DNA from: Thermodesulfovibrionia bacterium | GTDB taxonomy: Bacteria; Nitrospirota; Thermodesulfovibrionia; UBA6902 | DNA length: 64,000 nucleotides | Assembly (NCBI GenBank): GCA_963699585.1 | Contig: CAVOUK010000011.1 | Location: 37,749 to 101,748, forward strand | Direction of reading: 5' to 3' | Position numbers and translations under genes: made by a program | In this document: in pieces, positions 2,417-29,527 of the stretch | Numbering within the stretch: the stretch's first letter is position 1 | Layout of the letters: each line of letters begins with the position of its first letter | The notes under the pieces: generated by a model | What the model saw: the letters and a program-made list of their open reading frames with translations, nothing else | The model's database searches: none | What the model was told of the DNA's origin: nothing

Positions 2417-3101
2417 TTACCCGCTCCTTTCTGATCTTGTTCAGGCTCTCTTCTCCGCAGTTGAAGATGAGGTCGATGGCAGACATGTAATATTCAAATT
2501 CATTAAATAACTGTATATATACCGGCTGGTTGAATTCCTGGAATACCACATCTATCCCGGCATGGCTGAATCTATTAAAGTCCATATAAGTTTTGCCGTC
2601 TTTCCCAGCAAGGTATGTATCGGCGCCAAGCCTTCTGCATATATCTATAAGTCTCTGATTGGGTTCATCGCTAAGACCCTCCATTTCAGAGGCAATAACG
2701 ATATCAGTTTTTATCCCGAACATATCCTTCAGCAGCATGACACTGGCAATATTTGCTTTTGACAACAAATTCCACTCCTGATCATAGAAGTCCTTAAGGT
2801 ATTTAATGTATTTTTCATAGTAGGGAGATTTCCCATAGTTTGTCTGTAATGAATAGAGATGTTTTTTTTGCCAATTAGAGTTGTTGTCTATCAGCACTTC
2901 ATTGATCTTTTGCGGGAACTTGTAACATGCTGGTACAGTAAGCCACTGCCATCCGTTTGAGGTCTTTATCCTGTTCCTGTTCTGGTATTCATTTTTTTTG
3001 TACTGCACATTGTCAAGCAAAACAAAGACATCGCAGCTATCCATTTTGTCAAAATAACCAAGCCACGGCATAAATTGAGGCTGATGAATGGCGACGATCA
3101 T
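2385..3101 (-). CDS. WbqC family protein
   Basis: N-terminus MIVAIHQPQFMPWLGYFDKM is typical of the WbqC-like family, and the gene sits in a glycan locus. Confidence 0.7.
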   Translation of the reverse strand: MIVAIHQPQFMPWLGYFDKMDSCDVFVLLDNVQYKKNEYQNRNRIKTSNGWQWLTVPACYKFPQKINEVLIDNNSNWQKKHLYSLQTNYGKSPYYEKYIKYLKDFYDQEWNLLSKANIASVMLLKDMFGIKTDIVIASEMEGLSDEPNQRLIDICRRLGADTYLAGKDGKTYMDFNRFSHAGIDVVFQEFNQPVYIQLFNEFEYYMSAIDLIFNCGEESLNKIRKERVNEYTLHRCAS

Positions 3102-4567
3102 TGTGAATTCCCTTTCATTGTCACAAAGATAGGATTGCTTATCAGACGGTTGTCAATATCAATCCTGTAATAAGTCCTTTCCCCTGATCTGAAATAATCA
3201 TCAGTCAGCTCGATATCAAGGCTGCCGTCTATGATAAAATCTTTTATTACAATACCTTCCCTGATCAGCCTGAGCCTTGTATTCCTCCTATCTTCTTCGG
3301 ATAAACGGAGCTTAATCTTTAATCGTATCGCGTTGCTAACAGTTGCATTACCGCCCATTTCGGTCCAGATACCGTGCTCATCATCCCATATCTGAAAGGC
3401 CTCAAGAACTGGTTTTGAATCACCATGGACCGCATACATCCTGCCTGTGCGCATTGCTTTCAATATCTCAGCCTTATTATTTCCGTTGACTAAAAAAACT
3501 GTCTGGGTCTCTCCCATCCAGTTACCTTCTTTATAGTCCAGTTCACCTATAGCCCATACCGGTTTCTGACGCTGTCCGTTTATATACTGCTTCAGCGCCA
3601 TATCCCATACCCCTCCGGGTTTGCCGCTGTATTTCATCCCCTCAATAAATGCTGAAAAGCCTGTGTAATTAAAAGTTTCAAGAAGCTCTTTATAGTATGG
3701 TGCGGTGTATATCCCTATGCCATTAAGTTCATGTTTCCCTTCAATATCGGGATGCGCCCAGAAGACCATGCCTCCCTTTTTTTCAACATAATCTATAAGG
3801 TTTTGATATGGCAATGAGCCCCTGTCCCCGTGGTATTGGTCATAGAGGGGCGCGCAAAAGGGTATGTTATTTATTAATAAAAGCACGCCCGCAAGTAAAA
3901 TTATGACGCCTAATATTCTGAACGGACGACTTTCCTTATTGAAACTTAACATCCGCAGCTTCACAAGTTCTTTTTTCCTGTATAGTGCGAGCCATACTCC
4001 TGCGGGTATTAAGAGTATAGGCCATATATTTAAAAGACACCGCAAATCAAAGACCATGGGATTGTTGTAACCTATGGATGGGATACCCTCTAAATCCTCA
4101 GGTGTTTCAAGGCCGATCACAAGGAGGTGCTTGTGAAAGTTGATCAGTTTGAGATTATGGTCAAAATAGCTGCCATCCCAGTAATAGAACGGTATAGCCT
4201 CAACACCTGCGATAATTGTCATATCAGGATTTTGCTTTGCGATATCTTCGACCATGCCGAGATATTTTTTTGCGCCAAAGGTAATAATGGAATTTTTTTC
4301 TTCGGTCTTTTTTATTATTTTTCTTAGTGGGGAGATGCCATATTCAACTTTCAAATTGTCTTTATCGGTTATAATGGCAACCTTTAATCCTGCCTCTTTA
4401 ACTTTATTTACCATCTCTTCCGGAGAAAGCACTCCATCGCTGATACTGGTATCAAGATGAACTGCCCCGGATACCCTTTCCACTGCATTTATATTGCTGG
4501 AGTGCACTATAGACAGAATTATCAAAAATGCTGTAAGGATATACACAGATCTAACAGAGGTCTTCAT
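3098..4567 (-). CDS. Signal-anchored protein with a degenerate PHP-like metallophosphoesterase N-domain; function unknown
   Basis: ORF 3098..4663. I prefer the Met at 4567 (MKTSVRSVYILTAFLIILSIVHS, signal/anchor-like). GAVHLDTSISDG resembles the PHP HxH..SDG motif. There is a second hydrophobic stretch mid-protein, then FWAHPD. Confidence 0.5.
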   Translation of the reverse strand: MKTSVRSVYILTAFLIILSIVHSSNINAVERVSGAVHLDTSISDGVLSPEEMVNKVKEAGLKVAIITDKDNLKVEYGISPLRKIIKKTEEKNSIITFGAKKYLGMVEDIAKQNPDMTIIAGVEAIPFYYWDGSYFDHNLKLINFHKHLLVIGLETPEDLEGIPSIGYNNPMVFDLRCLLNIWPILLIPAGVWLALYRKKELVKLRMLSFNKESRPFRILGVIILLAGVLLLINNIPFCAPLYDQYHGDRGSLPYQNLIDYVEKKGGMVFWAHPDIEGKHELNGIGIYTAPYYKELLETFNYTGFSAFIEGMKYSGKPGGVWDMALKQYINGQRQKPVWAIGELDYKEGNWMGETQTVFLVNGNNKAEILKAMRTGRMYAVHGDSKPVLEAFQIWDDEHGIWTEMGGNATVSNAIRLKIKLRLSEEDRRNTRLRLIREGIVIKDFIIDGSLDIELTDDYFRSGERTYYRIDIDNRLISNPIFVTMKGNSQ

Positions 4568-5693
4568 ATGTTTCACTGTATAGGTTGTGGATCTTCTGGA
4601 CCATTTGTCCGGTGCTGAAATTGAGGGCCTTATTCCTGTTTGCACTGCCAAACCTGCCTGCAAGCTCCGTATCTTTTAATATCCTCAATGATTCCCTTGC
4701 CATTGATATATAATCTCCCGGCGGGACAAGGAAGCCGTTCATACCGTCTTCCACAATCTCAGGTATGCCGCCGACATTAGCTGCAACAATGGGCTTTCCG
4801 CATGTCATGGCTTCGAGCAGCACCCTTCCAAGCCCCTCATTTAAAGGTGTGTGAAGCAGGAGGTCTATGGAATTCATTATAGCCGGTATATCGGTCCTGA
4901 AACCGGTAAACGTTACTTCTTTGTTAAATCAAGAGAGTAAGCCAGTTTTTCCATGTCACCGTTCAGAGATCCGTCGCCGACTACAAGGAATCTTGCGCCG
5001 GGGAGTTCTTTTTTGATCAAATGGCAGGCCCTTAAGAAATATTCACATCCCTTAACAGCCTCAGCCCTCCCAACCCATCCTATAACGGGCATATCAGGAC
5101 GAAATACAAAATTCATTTCTCACAGTCATATGGGATGAAGAGAATTTAACTATATCAATGCCGCATGGAATGGTAACGATCTTGTTGTCAGGCGCTAAGT
5201 TATCGTGGAGATACTCCGTTTTTTCGATCTCCGTTAAAGTAATTATTTTATTTGTAAATCTTGCAGCTATCTTTTCAAGATACATGAATACCCTGCTTGT
5301 GAGCCTGCTGAAGTAGCCGTAAAACACATGCCCGTGCGGCATGTGTATAGCCACTTTTATCCCGGCAATTCGACCTGCGATCCTCCCGATGAATCCTGCC
5401 TTTGATGTGTGCGTATGCAGCACATCAGGTTTAATTTTCCTGATAACATTTAATATCTCAAAAAAGGCGAGAACATCCTGAAAAGGATTCAGGTCCCTTC
5501 TAAGTGATTTGATGTGATATACGGGTATGCCCGTTCTTACTGAAAAGGCATTAATATCAGCCTGCGGATCAAGGGTGGGGCCTACTGCAACGAAGACATC
5601 ATAACCCATACTTTTGAGTCCGGCAACAAGATCCAGGAAAACATCTGCTGAACCGCCTTTGTCAAGCCGTGTAATTATATGCAGTACTCTCAT
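4551..5693 (-). pseudogene. GT4-family (GT-B) glycosyltransferase split into three ORFs by two frameshifts (about 5100 and 4915)
   Basis: ORFs 5094..5693 (MRVLHIITRLDKGGSA.. N-domain), 4913..5116 (..PVIGWVGRAEAVKG..) and 4551..4877 (..NEGLGRVLLEAMTCGKPIVAANVGGIPEIV.. E-x7-E region) are colinear pieces of one GT4 enzyme. Confidence 0.75.
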
Positions 5694-5706
5694 ATATTGC
5701 CCTTAA

Positions 5707-6870
5707 TCAATACCTGTAAAATTCCGTACATCGTGTGCAGACCGGGAAATGTTTGTCTTTTTTTAGTATCTGCCTGAAATTCAGCGCCCTCTCACTGTTC
5801 CATAATTTTTTAAAAGAATTTTCTTTAATGTTGCCGATAGTATAATTAAGTGACTGGCAGGGCCTTACAGTGCCGTCAGGGAATATATATGCGACCATCC
5901 ATGGGCTTATGCAGCGGTTCTTATAGCTGTCAGGCAGAAAATCAAATGATGAATAGTATCTTTTTATTTCAGGGTCCGTAAGATTTGGATATACCGAGAC
6001 ATCAACATCTGTTTTTAAAGACCTGAGTTTTTTCAGCATCCGTATCAGCTTCTCAGGGAGTATGTTCGGGGTATTTTCTCTGACAAAGCCGGCCCAGTCA
6101 TGTGATGAGCATGAAAACTGGTCCTGAAATATCCTGTCGTGCCTTGAATATATTTCTTTGCTCAGGAATATCAGGTGATGAAATGTGATCGATGAAGCGC
6201 ACATGTCCTCCGCTGACCTCACGATCTCATCAAGTCTTGTATAATTTACCTCAAAAATAGTGGATGATATATTTATCAGGGGCCTGTTGGTCCCCCGTTC
6301 TTTTTTTAATCTGGCGATCTTTTGAAAGCCCGCCATTGCCCTGTCGTATGTGCCTGCTGTTCCCCTGATCTCATCATGGACCTCACGCGGGCCGTCAAGG
6401 GAAAATATTATCTCGTCTATTCCCGCATCCATTATGGATTCGGCCTTCTCCTCTAACAGGACGCCATTAGTCAGAATGTTGCATCTCATTTTTCTTTCTT
6501 TTATTAACCTGATGACCTCCGGCAGCTCCCTGTAGATCAGAGGCTCGCCTCCGAACAATGTTATTGCAGGTCTGAATTCAGCCACATCATCCAGCAGTTT
6601 TTTAATGTCATTTATGGATAACTGTTTTATTAATTCTTCAGACGGGTAGGCATGCGAACTGCCTTTCAGTCCCCACTGTCCGCACATCTTGCATCTTAAA
6701 TTACATCTGTATGTTATAAAAAGTGATATGGTCTCAGGATATGCGCTGTATCCGTTGCAGAGTTTGCATGTAACAGATGATTTCAGCCGTTTGCTGAATG
6801 CCTTGAGTGCATATTTAGGTTGTGTAACAGCTTTCTTTAAAGCCCTTGCGATGTTCCTTCTTGGTATCAT
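5707..6870 (-). CDS. Radical SAM protein with C-terminal SPASM-like Cys cluster
   Basis: ITYRCNLRCKMCGQWG (CxxxCxxC) and GGEPLIY; C-terminal CISPW..GTVRPCQS..FPVCTRCTEFY. Confidence 0.8.
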   Translation of the reverse strand: MIPRRNIARALKKAVTQPKYALKAFSKRLKSSVTCKLCNGYSAYPETISLFITYRCNLRCKMCGQWGLKGSSHAYPSEELIKQLSINDIKKLLDDVAEFRPAITLFGGEPLIYRELPEVIRLIKERKMRCNILTNGVLLEEKAESIMDAGIDEIIFSLDGPREVHDEIRGTAGTYDRAMAGFQKIARLKKERGTNRPLINISSTIFEVNYTRLDEIVRSAEDMCASSITFHHLIFLSKEIYSRHDRIFQDQFSCSSHDWAGFVRENTPNILPEKLIRMLKKLRSLKTDVDVSVYPNLTDPEIKRYYSSFDFLPDSYKNRCISPWMVAYIFPDGTVRPCQSLNYTIGNIKENSFKKLWNSERALNFRQILKKDKHFPVCTRCTEFYRY

Positions 6871-8013
6871 GATCTGGTAGCCCTCTCAACAGTCTCGACG
6901 ACTTTATAAAGCGTTTCATTCTTTACATAGTGATGGACCGGTATAAGCACAAGCCTTTCAGAGATATATTCTGCATTAGGGAAACTTCCGCCGCTGCAGT
7001 CGTAAATCTTGTGTATCGGTTTATCATAAAGTATTGTGGACTCAACGCCCATCCTGTTTATCTCTTCACAAACTCTCATCCTTTTTTCTGCGTTCTCAAC
7101 AATGATCGGGAACTGGTTGAAGACAACCCTCCAGCCGGCAGGTATCTCAGGACGTCTTATTCCCTTTATATTGCTGAACGCATCATAAAGTATCCTCCCT
7201 TTTTCCTCCCGGCCATGAAATATAAATTCAGCCCTTTTCAGAAGAGAACAGCCCAGGGAGCCCTGAAATGCTTCATAGCGGAAACTATTAAAATCATCAT
7301 GCAGTGATGTATATTTGAACTTTGAAATTGATTTTTTTAATAACGTATAGAACCACGGTCTTACCGCATATGATAATGCTATGGACTTTAAAAACAAACT
7401 GGTCCTCCCGGAGAAACCGAGCGATGGCAGTTTTTCTATTTCATTACGAACAAGCCCTGCAAATTTCTCATTGTCTGTCACAATAACTGCCGCCTGTAAC
7501 AGTTGAAAGGTTCTTGCCCCTGTTGAAACTTATAAAACCGATGTCCCCAAAAGTGCCGGTTAACCTAAGCCCTTTACTGGTGCCGAATGATGACGCAGCA
7601 TCCTCTATTGCAAATGCGTTATGTTTGCCGTTCATCCTGTCGATCTCTGCAGGTAACCCGAACATGTGCACATACAGAACGGCAAGTGTTTTATCAGAAA
7701 CCGCAGCGGCTGTTTTCCCGTAATCCATATTGAATGTATCAATGGACATATCAACAAGCCTGTACTTAAGCCCGGCCTTTTTTATCGGCAGGGTGAGGGA
7801 AGGGGCTGTATATGCAGGAAGGATTATCTCATCCTTATCAGACAGCTTTCTTAAGGCACGAAGAATAATATAAAGTGCGGTGGTCCCTGAATTGACCGCA
7901 AATGCATGCCTGATGCCGAGCATAATTTTAATTCTGTCCTCAAAATCCGATGGATGAATAACAGAATTCAGTATGTCACCAAACTTTATCGGTGTGCCTG
8001 CAGAAGGGATCAT
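6867..8013 (-). pseudogene. Second DegT-like PLP aminotransferase, one frameshift near 7490
   Basis: ORF 7468..8013 (..NSGTTALYIILRAL..AIEDAASSFG..FISFNRGKNLSTVTGG) and ORF 6867..7481 (C-terminal domain) join as TGG|AVIVTDNEKFA in an adjacent frame. Confidence 0.7.
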
Positions 8014-8591
8014 TCCATATTCTCCTTCTTTTCAAACACCATGATATATCCCCATGCGAGATATTGATTATTTATGCCTACTGCTTTTTCCCTGATAAGC
8101 CTGCATCCTGCCGCATTCATTACATTAATTATGTCTTCAGGTAAATAGGGAATTGTCGGGAATGTCATTTTTCTGCTATGCAGCCAGTTTTTAATGCGAA
8201 TAACAGGATTCCTTCTATTCCTTATGTCTATAACGAGTTTCCCGTTTTTATTTATAATTCTTATCATCTCTCTGAAGGCCGGTTCAAATTCAGACAGTGA
8301 TGAAAAATTGTAAATTGTGTTTAAACATACTGCAATGTCAAAAACACGACTTTTATACGGCATTCTTAATATGTCTCCCCTCAAAACAGACATTCCGGCA
8401 TTTTTTGCATCCGTGATCTGATGCCATGCGCCATCAATCCCTACGATCTTTTTATCATTGTGCCGTCCAATCTCTCTCAGAAGCACTCCCTTGCCGCATG
8501 CAATATCAGCGACCATTCCTTTATAACCCTTTAATACCTCCGCTGCGACCCTGACTGTTTTTATCGGAAGATAATTCTTAAAGCTGAACAA
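8010..8591 (-). CDS. Class I SAM-dependent methyltransferase
   Basis: VADIACGKGVLLREIG motif I; about 190 aa. Confidence 0.75.
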   Translation of the reverse strand: MFSFKNYLPIKTVRVAAEVLKGYKGMVADIACGKGVLLREIGRHNDKKIVGIDGAWHQITDAKNAGMSVLRGDILRMPYKSRVFDIAVCLNTIYNFSSLSEFEPAFREMIRIINKNGKLVIDIRNRRNPVIRIKNWLHSRKMTFPTIPYLPEDIINVMNAAGCRLIREKAVGINNQYLAWGYIMVFEKKENME

Positions 8592-23003: not shown

Positions 23004-25673
23004 TCATTTTCCTGTAATAACATTGTCTATAACACTTGCGCCTACAAATGGCATTATCAGAAAATCAATGGTGGGCCGTATTTTTGCAAGGAACGCATTC
23101 CAGTTCGCTATCTTCGTTTTCGGAATATATATGATATCGTTATTCTCTAAATACAGATCTTTAGTTATATCTCCGCCTTCAAGTATGGCCTTTGTATCAG
23201 CAACAATGAACTGGGGATTATCAAGACTTCCCCTTATTATCCTTATTTCATCTGTCAGCGCCTCCTCCTTGTATCCACCCGCCTTTCCCAGTGCCTGTAA
23301 CAGCGTAAGCCTGGACGTCAATTTATAAATACCGGGATTGCGCGCCTCTCCAAGGACATAAACATTTCTTTCTTCGGTATCGGTCTTGTACGGGATGTAA
23401 ATGATGTCCCCCCGGTCAACAATAACATCCTTTGACATCTCGCCGCCGAACATGATCTCAAAAAGGTTTATTTCTTTTGCCGTGCCTTCCGGCTTTGCTA
23501 TGCGGACCCTTTCCAGTTCAGCGTCCTTTGCAAAACCACCGGCCGTTATTACCAGTTGTGAAAGGGTTGTTTTCCCTTTCAGGACATAGATACCGGGACC
23601 TGTGGACAGGCGTCCCAGTGATTGTACAGCGCCTAAAAGGGTTACGGTCCTGCCTAAATATTCTTTTATCAGTATCTCGACCCTCGGTTCTCTTATATAC
23701 TCCAGCAGCGCCCTGTTTAATTCCGCCTCAGCCTGTCTGACGGTCATGTCAGATACTTTAATAGTTACAAAGGCTACCATTATATATCCGTCCGGTTTTA
23801 CGGCAACCTCATATTTCTTTTCCTCGAAACCTCTCCATACCTTTATCTCCAGCACGTCATTAGGGGCAATGAGATACTCAGGTATCCCTGATTCCATAGT
23901 ATATGAAGAATTCTTTTCAATTGCGGTAGCATCTTCTGCAGGCCCGGCAGCGTAATTGGATGAAACAGGGAAAAAGGACATGCACAGCGCAAGGAGAAGA
24001 CATATATTTCTGAACCTGTGGACCGGCAGCATTAAAATGCCGGACAATATTTCCTTAAACCTGTAGAGATAAAATTTGAGCGGGGTCTTACCGCAGGAAT
24101 CAGGATGTCTTTTTGCAAGCACCCATGCAGGAGGGAAAAACGTCCTTAAAATAAATAAGATTTTTTTTGTGGGTCCATTTTTCATTCCAAGGTGGACCAG
24201 ATAACTCAAACCTGAAACTGCATGACCTTTTGCAGATATATTGTAAAACAGTCTCTCCCAGACAGTTCTTTTTTCCGGTTTTAAACTGTTCAGTACACGT
24301 TCAGGAATATTGACGCCAGTGGTCAGCAGGGTCAACTTCAGAATATTATGTATGAAATTATCAACACCGTAAGCCTTGCCTGTTCTCACAGTTTTATTCC
24401 AGTCCAGTGCATCTCCATATCTTTTTATAAGGGACGCTACATCAACCAGATAAATAAGTTTTGATGCAGAGTGTGTTACCCTCATCGCATGCTCTGAGAG
24501 GTGGATCATTGAATGGTGCGGCGACATAGACTTTAATGTAGTTCCGGCAATCTCAACAGATACAGCATCTTTCCATATGTCGTTCATGTCGATAGTTGAA
24601 GAGTAGGGCGCCGGTATGGAGGAGTTAACAATATGCCAGTGCACATGAAAAGATGGTTTCCCGGGCTTACTGCTTCTGTAGTCACGGGTCGTCAGGTAGT
24701 TGTCAGGAGTTTCTTTACTGTCAAAGGGAGACAGGTCTGCAGCTTTATAACCAAGGGTATTCAGAACGGTGTCTGCCTTTGCAATATCCTCTTTTCTTAT
24801 AAGTAGATCAACATCAGACATACTTCTGGTCCCGATATCCTGATATACAAGTTCGGCAAGCACCGCACCTTTCATTGCCATTACGTCTATATCTTTATCT
24901 CTGAGCGAGTTGACAACTCTTCCGAATTCCGAGTAAAGCATCGTATTTTTTGCGGCTGTATAAAGGTAATCATGTCTTAATTTATTAAAGAAGGCTTTTT
25001 CAGTCTCAGTTATGAATTCAATGATATTATTGTCATGCAGTTCTTTTAAAATGGTAAATAATTTCTGAGATATTCCATTTTTGCGGGCCATGTCAAGCAC
25101 CTTTTCAAGGTCCGCACAATCCTTAAGTACCATTGCCATATCGCTGTTCAGTTTTTCATCAGAGAACTCATGTTTTAAAAGGGCTGTAATGAACATCTCT
25201 TCATTCGACCTTGTTCCGGTACCGCATTCTGCGTCAAAACCCTTGTATTTCCTTCTCAGGTTATAAAGAAAAGAACTTAATGGAGACAACAAATATGAGA
25301 GCCTGTTGACCATGGAGAATATCCCTTTTTTAAAATTCAGGTCCATGCCGTATTTCCCTGTCGCATATACCCTGCCTATCAGGTCTGATTCTTTCAGGAG
25401 GCTGTCGGCAGATGAAAAGGTATCGCCTTTTGTCAGGAACATAAATTTGCCGTTGCTGCGTAATATACGGATGAGCCTGTGCGCCACCATGTTCCCTTGC
25501 GTTTTATAAACAAGGATGTCACCGGCAGACAGGTCTTCTGCCTTTACAGGTTCAACATATATTGAATCTCCGGTCCTGAGGAGAGGCGACATGCTGTCGC
25601 CTGTGACCGGGACCTTCATATTGATATTATTACTTAGTATGCTTTCTGCCACATCAGGGTAATGTATCTTCAT
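23004..25673 (-). CDS. 889-aa composite ORF: S24/S26 signal-peptidase-like domain + PF14907-like nucleotidyltransferase + Wza-like polysaccharide export domain
   Basis: The ORF has three parts:
- aa 20-100: VPVTGDSMSPLLRTGDSIYV..GDILVY..VAHRL..FLTKGD (archaeal-type signal peptidase pattern).
- aa about 150-545: ..VMAMKGAVLAELVY..SMSDVDLL.. (NTP_transf_5-like).
- Internal Met548 (ATG 24032-24030), followed by a signal-peptide-like RFRNICLLLALCMSFFPVSS, then YLIAPNDVLEIKVW.. and two SLBB-like repeats. Confidence 0.7.
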   Translation of the reverse strand: MKIHYPDVAESILSNNINMKVPVTGDSMSPLLRTGDSIYVEPVKAEDLSAGDILVYKTQGNMVAHRLIRILRSNGKFMFLTKGDTFSSADSLLKESDLIGRVYATGKYGMDLNFKKGIFSMVNRLSYLLSPLSSFLYNLRRKYKGFDAECGTGTRSNEEMFITALLKHEFSDEKLNSDMAMVLKDCADLEKVLDMARKNGISQKLFTILKELHDNNIIEFITETEKAFFNKLRHDYLYTAAKNTMLYSEFGRVVNSLRDKDIDVMAMKGAVLAELVYQDIGTRSMSDVDLLIRKEDIAKADTVLNTLGYKAADLSPFDSKETPDNYLTTRDYRSSKPGKPSFHVHWHIVNSSIPAPYSSTIDMNDIWKDAVSVEIAGTTLKSMSPHHSMIHLSEHAMRVTHSASKLIYLVDVASLIKRYGDALDWNKTVRTGKAYGVDNFIHNILKLTLLTTGVNIPERVLNSLKPEKRTVWERLFYNISAKGHAVSGLSYLVHLGMKNGPTKKILFILRTFFPPAWVLAKRHPDSCGKTPLKFYLYRFKEILSGILMLPVHRFRNICLLLALCMSFFPVSSNYAAGPAEDATAIEKNSSYTMESGIPEYLIAPNDVLEIKVWRGFEEKKYEVAVKPDGYIMVAFVTIKVSDMTVRQAEAELNRALLEYIREPRVEILIKEYLGRTVTLLGAVQSLGRLSTGPGIYVLKGKTTLSQLVITAGGFAKDAELERVRIAKPEGTAKEINLFEIMFGGEMSKDVIVDRGDIIYIPYKTDTEERNVYVLGEARNPGIYKLTSRLTLLQALGKAGGYKEEALTDEIRIIRGSLDNPQFIVADTKAILEGGDITKDLYLENNDIIYIPKTKIANWNAFLAKIRPTIDFLIMPFVGASVIDNVITGK

Positions 25674-25689
25674 ATGTTCCTCACAAGAA

Positions 25690-25884
25690 CTATAAACTCT
25701 CTTTCGGTCCCTCTGTTGAGGTAAATAGTTTATCTATGAATGAAATTGCGGACAGGAATGCATCTCCGGCAAAGACTGCTGCGGTTACAAATCCCATCTC
25801 AAGAAATTTCCTCCGCTCAAGCGTCGAAACCGGACCGGGATCTTCTTCCTTTAATTCATCAGGATTTAAATTAATGCGTTTCAC
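25690..25884 (-). CDS. 64-aa protein with twin-arginine-like motif and one hydrophobic helix
   Basis: GTG start 7 nt after GGAGG. MKRINLNPDELKEEDPGPVSTLERRKFLEMGFVTAAVFAGDAFLSAISF.. (RRxFL followed by an h-region). Confidence 0.4.
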   Translation of the reverse strand: MKRINLNPDELKEEDPGPVSTLERRKFLEMGFVTAAVFAGDAFLSAISFIDKLFTSTEGPKESL

Positions 25885-25900
25885 TTTCCATCCTCCATAT

Positions 25901-26881
25901 CTATACTTTCCTCACAAAATCCAGTATCTTTCTGTCCGGATAAAAACCCAAGCTGAACATCCCGGCCTTCTGCGATATCTGCATCAGGGTCTCAGTGGAA
26001 TTTTCCATTCTGTTTTTGTCCCAGAAAGTAAGGAATGCATTCCTTACAAGTTCGGATGCGGCTTTTATCCCGTTTATCTTCACTGCACTGTTATGTTTTG
26101 AATGACTGATAAAAAACACCTTTTTGACAGGCACGCTCGCATTTATCGCATAGTTTGCAGTGCCGTGCCATGGCGTGCCATGCGCGATCAGGCCTTCTTC
26201 CGATAACGATACGATGACTCTGTCATCGCTCAGTATCCTGATGCCTTTTTCTTCATTCCAGATATTTGCGATAGTGCTTTTACCGGCGCCTGAGTGACCC
26301 AGGAAGAGATACCCTGAACCGTTGTCGTCAATGCAGCTTGCGTGCAGAAGAACACCATTACTTTCTGCGAGCAGGTTTATGGTCAACAGTTCAAGGAAGG
26401 GATAAAGAAAATCATTCTCTCCAGATTTGTGGAAATACACTGTCCCGTTCCTGAAATCTTTGTCGAATTCTGCAAACAACCTCCTGTGGCCGCCATTCTT
26501 TAAAGAGGGAATGGCCAAAAGATTTTCTGAATTGTCTTTTGTGCTATTTGTTATTTTTCTGCTGACTGCTGTTTTCTGACCGCTGTATAATCCCCATGTC
26601 GTATCAGCCTCAAACAACCTGCTGTTTTTAATTTGCCTGTTGTTCCTTACAGTTTGTGATTTAGGATCTCTTATTTCCATTCTGCAGTCTGCAGACTTCG
26701 ATCCGGTGTCTGCAGTTGTCAAGAATGGTTCCAGGCATTTATCCATACCAATACCATTACCATTCTGAGAAGAAATGGAAAAGATAAGATTTCCTATTTT
26801 AATATTGTTATCAAGCATAAAATAATAGTTTAACTGCCCTGCTGTCGTGTCTTGCATTTCGTCCCCGAGCTTCTGCACCAT
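25901..26881 (-). CDS. HPr-kinase-related P-loop protein (HprK C-domain-like)
   Basis: GVLLHASCIDDNGSGYLFLGHSGAGKSTIANIW matches the HprK C-domain P-loop region. The start is uncertain: Met at 26881, 26857 or 26818. Confidence 0.7.
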   Translation of the reverse strand: MVQKLGDEMQDTTAGQLNYYFMLDNNIKIGNLIFSISSQNGNGIGMDKCLEPFLTTADTGSKSADCRMEIRDPKSQTVRNNRQIKNSRLFEADTTWGLYSGQKTAVSRKITNSTKDNSENLLAIPSLKNGGHRRLFAEFDKDFRNGTVYFHKSGENDFLYPFLELLTINLLAESNGVLLHASCIDDNGSGYLFLGHSGAGKSTIANIWNEEKGIRILSDDRVIVSLSEEGLIAHGTPWHGTANYAINASVPVKKVFFISHSKHNSAVKINGIKAASELVRNAFLTFWDKNRMENSTETLMQISQKAGMFSLGFYPDRKILDFVRKV

Positions 26882-28054
26882 GTTGACCTGCCGGGTCCGG
26901 ATCTATTGGTCTTGCATGCAGTAAGCACTGCGTCTTCAGATTTAAGTTCAATCCTTGAGATCGCAGGCTTTTTATATGGTTTTTTCCCTTGCATAAACGG
27001 GCTCCTCTCATTATGCGTTCTGCCCTTCTATGGGCTATTTCGCAATGATAACTTACCGGATGTTCTCCATCTTTATTGCCCTCAAGCATAGAAATGCCAG
27101 GGCAGCTATCGCAAAATATGATGTGCTCACATCCTGCACATTTAGTAACGCCCTTTAATTTTCTGGCCCTTATGGATTTGAACATCATGTAACCATCGAT
27201 GAACTTATTATTTCTCAGACAATAATCGGGCTCCGGTATTATATCGCATATCCTCAATCTTCCGGCGGACGTTATGTTGAAGCAGTTCCTTCCTGCCCCG
27301 CAGTTAAAAAGGAATTCCTTGCTTGCCGGCGCATTGAATTTAGCGTACAGCTCCGACCACTCTCTTAAACGGTCCTTGTCGGAGAAATCAAAATGTATGT
27401 TCTCTTTAGGACTCATCCTTACGTCGTAAGGTGACATAGAACCACTAATATTCGGCAGAATGGTAAGGCCGTATCTGAATTTAACACCAAGGGATTCTGC
27501 GAATTTCTTCATCTCAGGCAGTTCGTGTTCGTTTATGGTTGTGACCATGGTTTTCAGGGTCAGCGGAATTTTATGTTCCAAAAGCAGTTTTATTCCATTA
27601 ATGCATGAATCATATGAGCCTTTGACTCCTGTAAAAGATTCGTAAGTTTCACGGGTGGCGCCATATAAGGTGATCTCAACAGAAAAAGGCATGTGTTTAC
27701 TTTAAAAGCAGCGCCGTATCCTCATCTATCAATGTACCGTTTGTAAAAAGCGTAATTATCAGTCCTTTTTTTCTTGCATATGTATAAATATCACTAAAAT
27801 CCTCTCTTAAAAGAGGTTCTCCGCCTGTAAGTAGGAGGTAAAGACAGCCCGCGTCCGTGATCTCGTCAATGATGCGGCATATCTCTTTACTGGTCAATTC
27901 ATTTTTTACGGAATTGTCCCTTATGTAGCAATGCCTGCAGTTAAGGTTGCAGTGGTGAGGTAAGCGCTATAGCGCCATCAAGCGGTATATCGTTCTTCAA
28001 TGCTGTCTCGTGCAGTTTCAGGCTGAAGTCCGAATACTCAATATTTTTTATCAT
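26811..28054 (-). pseudogene. PqqE-like radical SAM/SPASM peptide maturase, broken by frameshifts near 27960 and 27695; 3' end doubtful
   Basis: The gene is in three pieces:
- MIKNIEYSDFSLKLHETALKNDIPLDGAIALT (ATG 28054-28052, ATGA overlap with the PqqD stop).
- ..HHCNLNCRHCYIRD..CLYLLLTGGEPLL.. (ORF 27697..27897 plus upstream extension).
- ORF 26811..27692 with SPASM CGAGRNCFNITSAGRLRIC..CAGCEHIIFCDSCPG. Confidence 0.75.
26830..26994 (-). CDS. Candidate RiPP precursor peptide (54 aa), below the ORF-track size cut-off
   Basis: AGGAG 7 nt upstream of ATG 26994-26992; TAA at 26832-26830. My translation: MQGKKPYKKPAISRIELKSEDAVLTACKTNRSGPGRSTWCRSSGTKCKTRQQGS. It lies between the rSAM/SPASM and HprK-like genes. 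Confidence 0.45.
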   Translation of the reverse strand: MQGKKPYKKPAISRIELKSEDAVLTACKTNRSGPGRSTWCRSSGTKCKTRQQGS

Positions 28055-28353
28055 TCGTACTCCTGGATAAATTTAATATCTTTCAGGTCGCTGATAAATT
28101 CAGCCGTGTCATTCATTACAACATCCATCTGGGCCTCGTATTCTCCGGCGATCATTTTACAGATCTCCATTACGTCTTTTTCTCCGTCTATGAACTCCCA
28201 TATCCTTGTGCCGACCTCGTTGAGATTATAGATGTTGGAAAGGTCTCCGACGTCATCTGCTACAGGGATCAGGAGAGCTTCATCTCCGATCTGTCTGAAT
28301 ACGACATTAGAACATTTACTGTAGACAGTGTTTGCGATTGTCTGTTCTTCCAT
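28051..28353 (-). CDS. PqqD-family protein (RiPP recognition element-like)
   Basis: ..VVFRQIGDEALLIP..IYNLNEVGTRIWEFIDGEKDVMEICKMIAGEYE..DTAEFISDL fits the PqqD pattern. I prefer ATG 28353 (GAGGAGG 7 nt upstream, directly after the HD-GYP stop); the ORF-track start is 28371. Confidence 0.75.
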   Translation of the reverse strand: MEEQTIANTVYSKCSNVVFRQIGDEALLIPVADDVGDLSNIYNLNEVGTRIWEFIDGEKDVMEICKMIAGEYEAQMDVVMNDTAEFISDLKDIKFIQEYE

Positions 28354-28354
28354 T

Positions 28355-29527
28355 TCAGTCCTCCTCGCCATAAAATCCTGATGTTATATACAGACAGTGG
28401 TCTTTCATCAGGTCCACTGTCTTGGTAATCTGCAATTTACCTTCCGCATTATAAAGTATCTCCACCACCGGGCTGAGCGGGGCGAGCCTGTTAACAGAAA
28501 TAACCTTGCCCACCTCTTTGGAATTAAGCCTGACATAGAGGCCTTCCGGAAATGCAGAGAATTCATTTACAAGGGTCTTGATGATATTGAGTGGAAATTG
28601 TTCTTTCGCTGCGGAAATTATCTCCTTTATGGCCTCAAACGGCAGACACCTCGGCCTGTACGGCCTTGGTTGCAACAAAGCAGAATACATATCTGAAATC
28701 CCGATTATAAGTGAGTTTTCCGGAATATCAATGTCTTTACGGCCCTTAGGATAGCCGGAGCCATCATATCTTTCATGCTCCTGCAAGATTATATCAGCAA
28801 ACCCTTTATACCTGCCTTCAAATTGACGCATTATCTCATATCCATATTCAGGATGTTTCTTTATCAGGGCCATTTCTTCATTGGTCAGCTTGCCCATTTT
28901 TGTAATTATTTCAGACGGCAGTCTAAGCATGCCTACATCATGAAAACACGTCTGCATCACCAGATCTTCCAGCCTGTCATCCCTGAGTTTCAGTCCTATG
29001 CCTACTCTTGCCGCTATTATGGAGGTATTAAGTGAGTGTTTTACTAAATTTTTTATTGTATCGTTATCAGAATCATTTTCTACCTTATATAAAAGCTGCA
29101 TCCATGTGTTAGATTGAGACTTGATATGAGATACTATATCCTGTGCATATGAAAACACAGGATCGATTGAGAAATCCCTTTTGTCCTTTATTTGATGAAA
29201 GATATTAAAAAGATTATTTTCGACTTCATAATAAAGATTCTTTGCACTTTTTATACTCTTCCTGTGTGTAAAATCAAAATCATCTCCAATAATTCTGAAT
29301 GAGACCTCTTCTACTGAAAGTGAAAGCTCTTTCTCCGGGGCAGCTTCACGCCCTTTCACCGGGTCAACTGAATGCTGTTTTAGAGTAGCCTCCCCGGTTA
29401 TTTCCCTGAAGGCAATCTCTTTTCCTCCGGATTCCGCTTTGTTCTCGCCGGATGGTCCGAGCAATTCATATGCTGCATCCCAGATCGGAGGATTAGTCAT
29501 TTTTGTCCCAGTGTTTTGCTTCATCAT
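28355..29527 (-). CDS. HD-GYP domain protein (putative c-di-GMP phosphodiesterase)
   Basis: HDVGMLRLP, HPEYGYEIM, EHERYDGSGYPKG. Confidence 0.8.
   Translation of the reverse strand: MMKQNTGTKMTNPPIWDAAYELLGPSGENKAESGGKEIAFREITGEATLKQHSVDPVKGREAAPEKELSLSVEEVSFRIIGDDFDFTHRKSIKSAKNLYYEVENNLFNIFHQIKDKRDFSIDPVFSYAQDIVSHIKSQSNTWMQLLYKVENDSDNDTIKNLVKHSLNTSIIAARVGIGLKLRDDRLEDLVMQTCFHDVGMLRLPSEIITKMGKLTNEEMALIKKHPEYGYEIMRQFEGRYKGFADIILQEHERYDGSGYPKGRKDIDIPENSLIIGISDMYSALLQPRPYRPRCLPFEAIKEIISAAKEQFPLNIIKTLVNEFSAFPEGLYVRLNSKEVGKVISVNRLAPLSPVVEILYNAEGKLQITKTVDLMKDHCLYITSGFYGEED

Follow-up and report, generated by a model that had tools for sequence, protein, structure and literature searches.

A conserved gene fusion joins a signal-peptidase-like domain and a PF14907 nucleotidyltransferase to a Wza-type exporter in a Nitrospirota polysaccharide locus

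A stretch of 64,000 nucleotides from a Thermodesulfovibrionia bacterium (Nitrospirota; assembly GCA_963699585.1, contig CAVOUK010000011.1, positions 37,749 to 101,748; hereafter the window, in whose numbering all positions are given) carries on its reverse strand a single open reading frame (ORF) that combines four elements: an S26B-like peptidase domain, a PF14907 nucleotidyltransferase, an internal Sec-type signal peptide and a Wza-like outer-membrane polysaccharide export (OPX) protein. The locus therefore raises the questions of whether this is one protein or two, where its parts end up, and what the enzymatic half does next to an exporter. An earlier reading of the sequence alone (the sequence-only reading) had suggested a genuine fusion that would link the processing of peptides or glycans with the outer-membrane channel, and had considered an internal start giving two products and a lost stop codon as alternatives. 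The account that we favour, and judge to be probable on balance, is that of a maintained read-through fusion whose product is split by signal peptidase I and whose N-terminal half takes part in the maturation of a small peptide.

Domain architecture and origin of the fusion

The frame is open over all 889 codons and the ORF list contains no internal stop, as the sequence-only reading had noted. The domain scans also uphold the assignments that it had made from motifs. At the N-terminus, the Pfam model Peptidase_S24 matches residues 21-75 barely above its cut-off (25.0 against 23.3 bits), and the NCBIfam model TIGR02228 for archaeal-type signal peptidase I matches residues 19-108 with 64 bits (cut-off 51.85). 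In a sequence search of the PDB, residues 20-95 were found to match human SEC11C (4e-7), with the GDSMSP (SM-P), HRLI (HR) and TKGD boxes aligned. The Pfam model NTP_transf_5 (PF14907) covers residues 187-448 with 152.8 bits (cut-off 31.2, E 1.6e-44), and within the nucleotidyltransferase motif KG(268-269)...D287-x-D289 24 sequences agree without exception on K268, G269, D287 and D289. The C-terminal part, described before as Poly_export followed by SLBB-like sequence, matches Pfam Poly_export (598-669) and twice SLBB/SLBB_2 (SLBB-1 at about 674-762, SLBB-2 at 770-850), as well as the NCBIfam model of the PEP-CTERM-type polysaccharide export protein (599-761), and the C-terminal third of the protein matches Escherichia coli Wza (2J58) with 3e-18 in the PDB search. 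An AlphaFold2 model of the whole protein (73-row alignment) has a mean predicted local distance difference test score (pLDDT) of 87.4, and its Foldseek matches in the PDB are Wza, nucleotidyltransferases of the ANT(2'')-Ia type and SEC11. By domain, the matches comprise SEC11C/A, SpsB, LexA and UmuD for the peptidase part and ANT(2'')-Ia, MenT, LnuA and FKRP for the nucleotidyltransferase, while 346 columns of the exporter align with the 356-residue 2J58 chain. Both halves retain every catalytic and structural motif.

This architecture is not restricted to the window. A homologue search among 5.8 billion clustered proteins (clusters at 90% identity) returned 22 clusters that span the full query, with lengths of 853-919 residues and identities of 47-100%, derived from JGI, ENA, NCBI and Logan assemblies; a further homologue of 693 residues is missing the peptidase domain alone. 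The two closest loci, L093 (a JGI metagenome contig, 89% identical) and L008 (an NCBI metagenome-assembled genome (MAG), 82%), share the length of 889 codons with the window, and their junctions are free of indels (L and P numbers denote related loci and proteins). Among these three, both the amino-acid and the synonymous identity vary in large blocks; window and L008 are about 100% identical at codons 46-165, 511-660 and 796-885 and 55-70% identical elsewhere, a pattern that suggests recombination between related exopolysaccharide loci. The source genome (2.42 Mb in 12 contigs, 84% complete) holds two more OPX genes, both of them stand-alone; in the 84% of it that is present, PF14907 is not encoded in full a second time.

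To place the fusion among other arrangements of its parts, hidden Markov models of the three modules were scanned over all ORFs of 87 related loci. The modules occur as three separate genes (e.g., L013 and L014), as peptidase-nucleotidyltransferase fusions in Omnitrophota, WOR-3, Verrucomicrobiota, Lentisphaerota and others, and as a nucleotidyltransferase gene followed 130-330 nt on by an OPX gene in Syntrophales; the unfused neighbourhood was also seen in Acidobacteriota, Syntrophales and Desulfobacterales. In Methanosarcina (L055, L057, L077) genes for an anchor-less peptidase and a PF14907 protein lie close together, and the pair is therefore not limited to bacteria.

In a tree of the nucleotidyltransferase domain, every triple fusion falls into one clade of 20 rows with an SH-aLRT support of 100%, which lends weight to a genuine fusion. 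The clade, made up of Thermodesulfovibrionia/Nitrospirota and uncultured allies, contains 14 triple fusions, one nucleotidyltransferase-OPX fusion, three split forms and a further gene that a contig end interrupts; those members that have names are MAGs of Thermodesulfovibrionia/Nitrospirota and 'Deltaproteobacteria'. Of the split forms, L004 is the sister of the fused L005. Its peptidase-nucleotidyltransferase gene ends in GAG CTG GAA TGA and overlaps the ATG of an OPX gene (ATGA), the OPX protein starts with a signal peptide of its own (MTKILIMSCVLACS...), and genes for Wzc and Wzy follow as they do in the window. In L001 the OPX gene lies 2.4 kb downstream, and P0025, available as protein only, is a peptidase-nucleotidyltransferase protein without an OPX part. 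As the two halves are adjacent and overlap by ATGA in the sister locus L004, the fusion is a read-through of two genes that were neighbours in an exopolysaccharide locus and coupled in translation. The upstream gene already combined a peptidase (LppS-like) with a nucleotidyltransferase (LppN/PsmN-like) before the fusion, the downstream gene encoded a Wza-type OPX protein with a Sec signal, and this signal peptide has been retained and is now internal, at residues 552-575. There has been more than one switch between the fused and the split state.

The best 150 matches of an exhaustive phmmer search (1.84 billion representatives) included no other protein that joins nucleotidyltransferase and OPX matches, and the fusion is therefore confined to one family. 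L029 (Sulfotelmatobacter), a candidate for an independent fusion from the tblastn join, was rejected, as about 400 nt separate its two genes and its OPX protein has a lipobox of its own. Many OPX relatives of 700-870 residues carry the exporter C-terminally behind 400-540 residues that resemble neither the peptidase nor the nucleotidyltransferase (P0070, P0079, P0083, P0119, P0182, P0183) and represent other, putative N-terminal fusions to the same exporter family. The 'Deltaproteobacteria' MAG locus L011 harbors the nucleotidyltransferase-OPX fusion of the clade (5983-8199, 738 aa), which has no peptidase domain, and at 2439-3620 a radical SAM enzyme of 393 aa to which a PqqD-like N-terminus is apparently fused.

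The internal signal peptide and the fate of the polypeptide

The linker that precedes the exporter half (Table 1) differs in length and sequence between orthologues, whereas all three modules are conserved. It is followed by the top hydropathy peak of the whole protein, residues 557-575 (ICLLLALCMSFFPVSSNYA), with HRFRN before and SSNYA|AG after it. This segment has the anatomy of a Sec signal peptide: two to three basic residues come first, then a hydrophobic core of 14-16 residues and a c-region that is short and polar. Of the 15 aligned orthologues, 14 have Ala at position -1; position -3 is small or aliphatic, and the putative sites read, e.g., YA|AG, HA|SE, NA|SG, MA|SG, FA|AG, LA|ND or SA|DE. 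Cleavage is predicted after Ala575 or, alternatively, after Ser572. In the AlphaFold2 model residues 567-583 are disordered (pLDDT < 50), as is the poorly conserved linker of about 25 residues after the hydrophobic segment. Stand-alone OPX proteins of the Nitrospirota clade have sites of the signal peptidase I type like the fused members; stand-alone homologues from other phyla have canonical lipoboxes and are thus lipoproteins.

Lipoprotein signals are also the rule among the exporters that this one resembles most. Class-1 OPX proteins are defined by Poly_export with SLBB domains behind it and by a Wza_C helix in which no fewer than 10 of the 34 residues are homologous to residues 326-359 of 2J58, and some 78% of them have a lipoprotein (signal peptidase II) signal with a lipobox Cys (PMC9603273). 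The phmmer alignment of the fusion protein spans residues 100-342 of Wza 2J58 and includes the WN..L..PTI start of Wza_C, i.e., about 17 residues of this segment. The model ends in a C-terminal helix of 29 residues (858-886, as helices 858-876 and 879-886), with a pLDDT below 50 for residues 874-886, and the Pfam model Wza_C gave no match on the fusion protein. By the published criteria the exporter is closest to Class 1. It has no lipobox, and lipoprotein processing was rejected, as Cys564 is preceded by Leu at its -1 position and is not conserved (there is no such Cys in P0017, P0019 and P0020).

Based on the short core and the conserved small residues, we propose a polyprotein-like cleavage of the fusion by signal peptidase I. 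The N-terminal half of about 550 residues (1-551) would fold and stay in the cytoplasm. Once the internal signal peptide emerges, it would target the ribosome-nascent chain complex to SecYEG, through which the C-terminal 314 residues would pass into the periplasm, and signal peptidase I would cut after Ala575. The freed OPX protein would then join Wzc, the product of the next gene, insert its C-terminal helices into the outer membrane and export the polymer made by Wzx/Wzy. The peptidase-transferase half would remain in or at the inner membrane, with the core of the signal peptide at its C-terminus as a temporary tether. The fusion would provide synthesis of both halves at a ratio of 1:1 and place the enzymes at the export site. 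As a cleavable signal peptide would split the product again, the fusion is expected to be nearly neutral, which would explain the alternation of fused and split states among close relatives. The coupling of peptide or glycan processing to the channel put forward by the sequence-only reading is plausible, with the qualification that the halves are likely to part after export, given a signal peptide that is conserved and cleavable.

Alternatively, the segment might not be cleaved but serve as a permanent signal anchor, so that cytoplasmic enzymes would be physically coupled to an inner-membrane-tethered periplasmic OPX ring. Bitopic N-in/C-out proteins with big cytoplasmic domains are common, which makes this topology conceivable, and the long retention of the fusion, down to 47% identity, as well as the disordered and little conserved linker behind the segment would be in line with it. 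However, a core of 14-16 residues is short for a permanent anchor and the conserved small-x-small motif is typical of signal peptidase I. In addition, the exporter is homologous to Wza into the Wza_C segment and must therefore quit the inner membrane to bring its predicted Wza-like C-terminal helix to the outer membrane, and the split relatives manage with a free OPX protein and an untethered enzyme. We therefore consider an uncleaved protein unlikely.

A second possibility is that in this genome the OPX protein mainly originates from a start within the ORF, with the full-length protein as a minor or non-functional read-through product. The sequence-only reading had placed the beginning of a signal peptide at Met548. 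The ATG at 24032 is indeed codon 548, but the signal peptide proper begins at about His552, and Met548 is kept only in the nearest relatives (window, L093 and L008), with I, L, F or S at this position elsewhere. An A/U-rich stretch lies ahead of ATG548; its only Shine-Dalgarno-like motif in the window, AAGGAA, is 18-19 nt away, whereas genuine starts in the operon have GGA(G) 4-10 nt upstream. The same AAGGAA precedes TTG543 at a spacing of 4 nt, like the GGA before the gene's own ATG, but codon 543 is TTA in L093 and GTT in L008. A comparison of window, L093 and L008 revealed no synonymous-site constraint specific to the junction; the broad mosaic of identity blocks seen instead is uninformative on internal initiation. 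In L005 and L010 the stretch from the end of the nucleotidyltransferase domain to the hydrophobic core contains no ATG, GTG or TTG in frame, so that the exporter, which is fully conserved there, can arise in these two only as part of the long polypeptide. Judged from these sequences, internal initiation cannot be the general mechanism, and the two-product reading is quite unlikely for this genome.

It appears highly improbable that the N-terminal domain itself cuts the junction. This domain is homologous to signal peptidases and a site of the matching type is present at the junction, but the anchor-less domain is predicted to be cytoplasmic while the site would face the periplasm, and a cut before export would leave the OPX protein stranded in the cytoplasm. 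Moreover, in many phyla and in archaea the peptidase domain is separate or fused to the nucleotidyltransferase only, without OPX fusion, and conversely the L011 protein (P0022) retains the nucleotidyltransferase-OPX fusion without the peptidase domain. The chance that an intergenic stop was simply lost by sequencing error or mutation in this genome is close to nil: two 1-nt insertions in a neighboring gene show that indel errors or decay occur in the contig, but the 22 clusters of independent assemblies with the same open frame, the three indel-free close genomes and the intact motifs of both halves exclude an artefact or recent pseudogene.

The surrounding cassette and the role of the N-terminal half

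The fusion gene is part of a conserved gene order (Table 1). In the cassette, genes for an AAA_22 ATPase, an HD-GYP protein, PqqD, a radical SAM/SPASM enzyme, a 52-54-codon ORF and an ScmC/HprK-like kinase, in some loci with an additional small ORF, lead up to the fusion gene, which is followed by Wzc, Wzy_C, a MurJ-like flippase, methyltransferases and glycosyltransferases. The order of fusion or OPX gene and Wzc gene was also found in L004, L005, L006 and L093. Pfam ScmC was detected in all orthologous loci, and the true start of the kinase gene probably lies downstream of 26881. The putative precursor peptide has homologues among the called genes of L011 and L093 (52-54 aa). In the window the radical SAM gene runs over three frames due to two 1-nt insertions near 27960 and 27700, the second of which turns AA into AAA; its orthologues in L008, L012, L093, L005 and L006 are intact.

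Table 1. Positions of the fusion gene, its parts and the neighboring genes in the window.
Feature	Position	Strand	Basis and remarks
Wzy_C/O-antigen-ligase-like polymerase, 449 aa	19405..20754	-	NCBIfam; Pfam Wzy_C in orthologous loci
Wzc-type polysaccharide co-polymerase/tyrosine autokinase, 744 aa	20766..23000	-	NCBIfam; start 3 nt past the fusion stop
Whole fusion gene, 889 codons	23004..25673	-	ORF list; stop at 23004-23006
Wza-like OPX part, residues 576-889	23007..23948	-	Pfam, Wza alignment, Foldseek, AlphaFold2
Internal Sec-type signal peptide, residues 552-575	23949..24020	-	Hydropathy, alignment; n-region HRFRN, h-region ICLLLALCMSFFPV, c-region SSNYA
Variable linker, residues 523-551, including Met548 (ATG 24032-24030)	24021..24107	-	Orthologue alignment
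PF14907 (NTP_transf_5) nucleotidyltransferase-fold domain with helical C-terminal part, residues 157-522	24108..25205	-	Pfam, Foldseek
Connecting helix, residues 118-143	25245..25322	-	AlphaFold2 helix; Kyte-Doolittle 1.07
Signal-peptidase-like domain (S26B, Sec11/SipW/LppS-type), residues 19-113	25335..25619	-	TIGR02228, SEC11C, Foldseek
Small ORF, 64 aa, RRKFLE motif, one hydrophobic segment	25690..25884	-	ORF list; directly upstream of the fusion gene
ScmC/HprK-like kinase gene	25901..26881	-	NCBIfam ScmC 6.7e-10 and HprK_rel_A/B
Putative precursor peptide, 54 codons (..EDAVLTACKT..)	26830..26994	-	Frame-1 translation
Radical SAM/SPASM gene	26979..28054	-	L005 enzyme as tblastn query; aligned with the intact genes of L008 and L012
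PqqD-family RiPP (peptide made by the ribosome and modified post-translationally) recognition element	28051..28371	-	NCBIfam lasso_PqqD, geo_PqqD, ScmD

Several features of the related loci vary. The small ORF upstream of the fusion gene is 69% identical to a called gene of 72 aa at the same place in L093 (5766-5984), whereas the more distant fused loci L005 and L006 lack the RRKFLE small ORF and have a direct overlap of kinase and fusion genes. In L004 the radical SAM gene is frameshifted, too (region 2708-7092), and a gene of 1047 aa with ASH/DUF1573 repeats is inserted between the small ORF after the radical SAM gene and the kinase gene. Farther along the operon, which is rich in glycosyltransferase genes, the window has another intact radical SAM/SPASM gene (5707-6870, reverse strand; 387 aa). 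Several copies of a short palindromic element with the pattern C6-8 TTT..AAA G6 occur in related loci (L011 6767-6790; L001 9267-9290), where they sit in frame at one common loop of the nucleotidyltransferase domain (..NPPSPPFTKGG..) in non-sister lineages, and also in proteins P0016 and P0025; the window contains none.

The composition of the cassette points to the linear polyphosphorylated peptide (LPP) RiPP clusters described for Bacillota (Nat Commun 2026; PMC13381572). These comprise the SipW-like peptidase LppS, the discrete RiPP recognition element (RRE) protein LppB, the HprK kinase LppK, the uncharacterised NTP transferase LppN and an MsbA-like pump, and they often lie inside capsule loci. 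For LppS, RRE-dependent leader removal has been shown, which needs S29, H68 and D93, and its N-terminal helix contacts the RRE (PMC13381572). In the window a signal peptidase I-like peptidase, a stand-alone RRE, an HprK-like kinase and an NTP transferase are all encoded within 23004-28371, and the same set is present in L001, L004, L005, L006 and L093. The link to lasso-peptide and HprK-type clusters drawn by the sequence-only reading is borne out by the domain scans, the NCBIfam matches of the neighboring genes and the published LPP clusters. The genes on either side of the cassette, both here and in orthologous loci, include no MsbA-like ABC exporter.

The peptidase-like domain fits such a role. 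S27, H65, D84 and D90 are almost invariant in the homologue alignment, and Ser27-His65-Asp90 are the predicted catalytic triad, preceded by a polar helix at residues 5-14 of the AlphaFold2 model. Neither hydropathy nor the model indicated a hydrophobic segment ahead of residue 118 that could serve as an N-terminal membrane anchor, and the connecting helix (residues 118-143) was ruled out as a membrane span owing to its hydropathy of just 1.07. For this reason the domain does not qualify as a true secretory signal peptidase; it is predicted to be cytoplasmic and probably works like soluble LppS. By analogy to the LPP systems, residues 1-522 would most likely act in leader removal and decoration of the phosphorylated small peptide encoded at 26830-26994. 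PqqD would present the leader of this peptide, the radical SAM enzyme and the HprK-like kinase would modify its core, the S26 domain would take off the leader, and the PF14907 domain would decorate the phosphorylated residue.

A number of observations weigh against the combined account of signal peptidase I cleavage and peptide maturation. In the window the aligned position -3 is Asn, which is unusual, and the alternative site VSS|N fits better; the call itself was based on the -3/-1 rule and the length of the h-region. The peptidase-nucleotidyltransferase proteins of the split relatives end without a hydrophobic tail, so that membrane tethering of the enzyme half is not a conserved requirement and is probably a by-product. 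Since Met548 is shared by the three closest genomes, some internal initiation may add a minor share in this subclade. The frameshifts in the radical SAM gene may reflect recent pseudogenisation, i.e., a decaying peptide pathway, or assembly indels. Finally, LppN gave no activity in the published heterologous system (PMC13381572).

Beyond this, it is tempting to speculate, though we regard it as doubtful, that the maturation of LPP-like phosphopeptides belongs functionally to Wzx/Wzy polysaccharide export in diderms, with the peptidase-transferase, tethered by the signal peptide, deliberately stationed at Wzc/Wza and the matured phospho- or glycopeptide being attached to the polymer, priming, capping or gating it, or leaving through Wza. 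If true, this would be a first biological role for LPPs and PF14907 enzymes, both stated to be of unknown function in the LPP study, which notes co-localisation with capsule loci and calls a functional link with polysaccharide export untested (PMC13381572), and the fusion would be its 'Rosetta stone'. The retention of the fusion to 47% identity is independent genomic evidence that ties the peptide pathway to polysaccharide export, and the recurrence of the peptidase/nucleotidyltransferase/OPX neighborhood in Nitrospirota, Acidobacteriota, Desulfobacterota and Omnitrophota supports the same tie, as does the joint occurrence of peptidase and nucleotidyltransferase genes in Methanosarcina. Taken together, the system reaches far past Bacillota. 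The single ORF also represents a compact construct for assays of leader cleavage, PF14907 chemistry and export. If the proposed cleavage takes place, the protein would be a rare bacterial polyprotein in which a cytoplasmic enzyme and an outer-membrane protein are split by signal peptidase I.

Comparison with known systems

Each module belongs to a known family. With E. coli Wza (2J58) the exporter part shares Poly_export, two SLBB domains, a predicted C-terminal helix and the adjoining Wzc gene; in contrast to Wza, its signal is of the signal peptidase I type, has no lipobox and is internal, behind 551 cytoplasmic residues. The peptidase part shares the fold, the SM-P, HR and TKGD boxes and the Ser-His-Asp triad with Sec11, SipW and archaeal signal peptidase I (MEROPS S26B), but has no N-terminal transmembrane anchor, is shortened to about 110 residues and is predicted to be cytoplasmic, and its substrate is likely a RiPP leader rather than a secretory signal peptide.

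There is precedent for the proposed processing. The cytochrome b-c1 precursor FbcH of Bradyrhizobium is separated by signal peptidase at an internal signal peptide. The same applies to hepatitis C virus core-E1, a polyprotein split by the host signal peptidase (PMC5402940). In both, as proposed here, an upstream cytoplasmic or membrane part ends in the signal peptide of the exported part and stays anchored through it after the cut; for both, cleavage has been proven biochemically, whereas for the fusion protein it is deduced from sequence.

The cassette shares the combination of a PqqD-like protein, a radical SAM/SPASM enzyme and an HprK-like kinase with the SynChlorMet (ScmC/D/E/F), GeoRSP and HprK-related kinase A/B cassettes. 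As all NCBIfam scores of the neighboring genes for the ScmC, GeoRSP and HprK_rel_A/B equivalogs are far under the curated cut-offs, membership was rejected, and the neighbors are therefore not members of these equivalogs. Literature searches on PF14907, SynChlorMet, GeoRSP and HprK-related kinases retrieved nothing relevant, and no paper on such fusions or such cassettes in diderm bacteria was found.

The nucleotidyltransferase part has a counterpart in PsmN of the pseudomycoidin lasso cluster, which is required in E. coli for the addition of hexose to a phosphorylated C-terminal Ser and is inactive as a DxD mutant (PMC6993621). PsmN belongs to the same uncharacterised nucleotidyltransferase family, with an ANT(2'')-Ia-like structure and the DxD motif, and acts downstream of an HprK-type kinase; it differs in being a stand-alone protein of a lasso cluster.

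The closest known whole is the LPP system. The catalytic residues S29/H68/D93 of LppS correspond in spacing to S27/H65/D90 of the fusion protein, both have an N-terminal helix ahead of the catalytic Ser, and both LPP clusters and the cassette sit in polysaccharide loci; the likeness to LppS and LppN is drawn from the published description. Peptidase-nucleotidyltransferase fusions are widespread outside Bacillota, unlike the separate LppS and LppN. In the present locus these two enzymes are one polypeptide, which is joined further to an outer-membrane exporter via the retained signal peptide. An OPX/Wzc/Wzy/MurJ export set takes the place of the MsbA-like ABC pump, a radical SAM/SPASM enzyme is added, and the host is a diderm member of the Nitrospirota instead of a member of the Bacillota.

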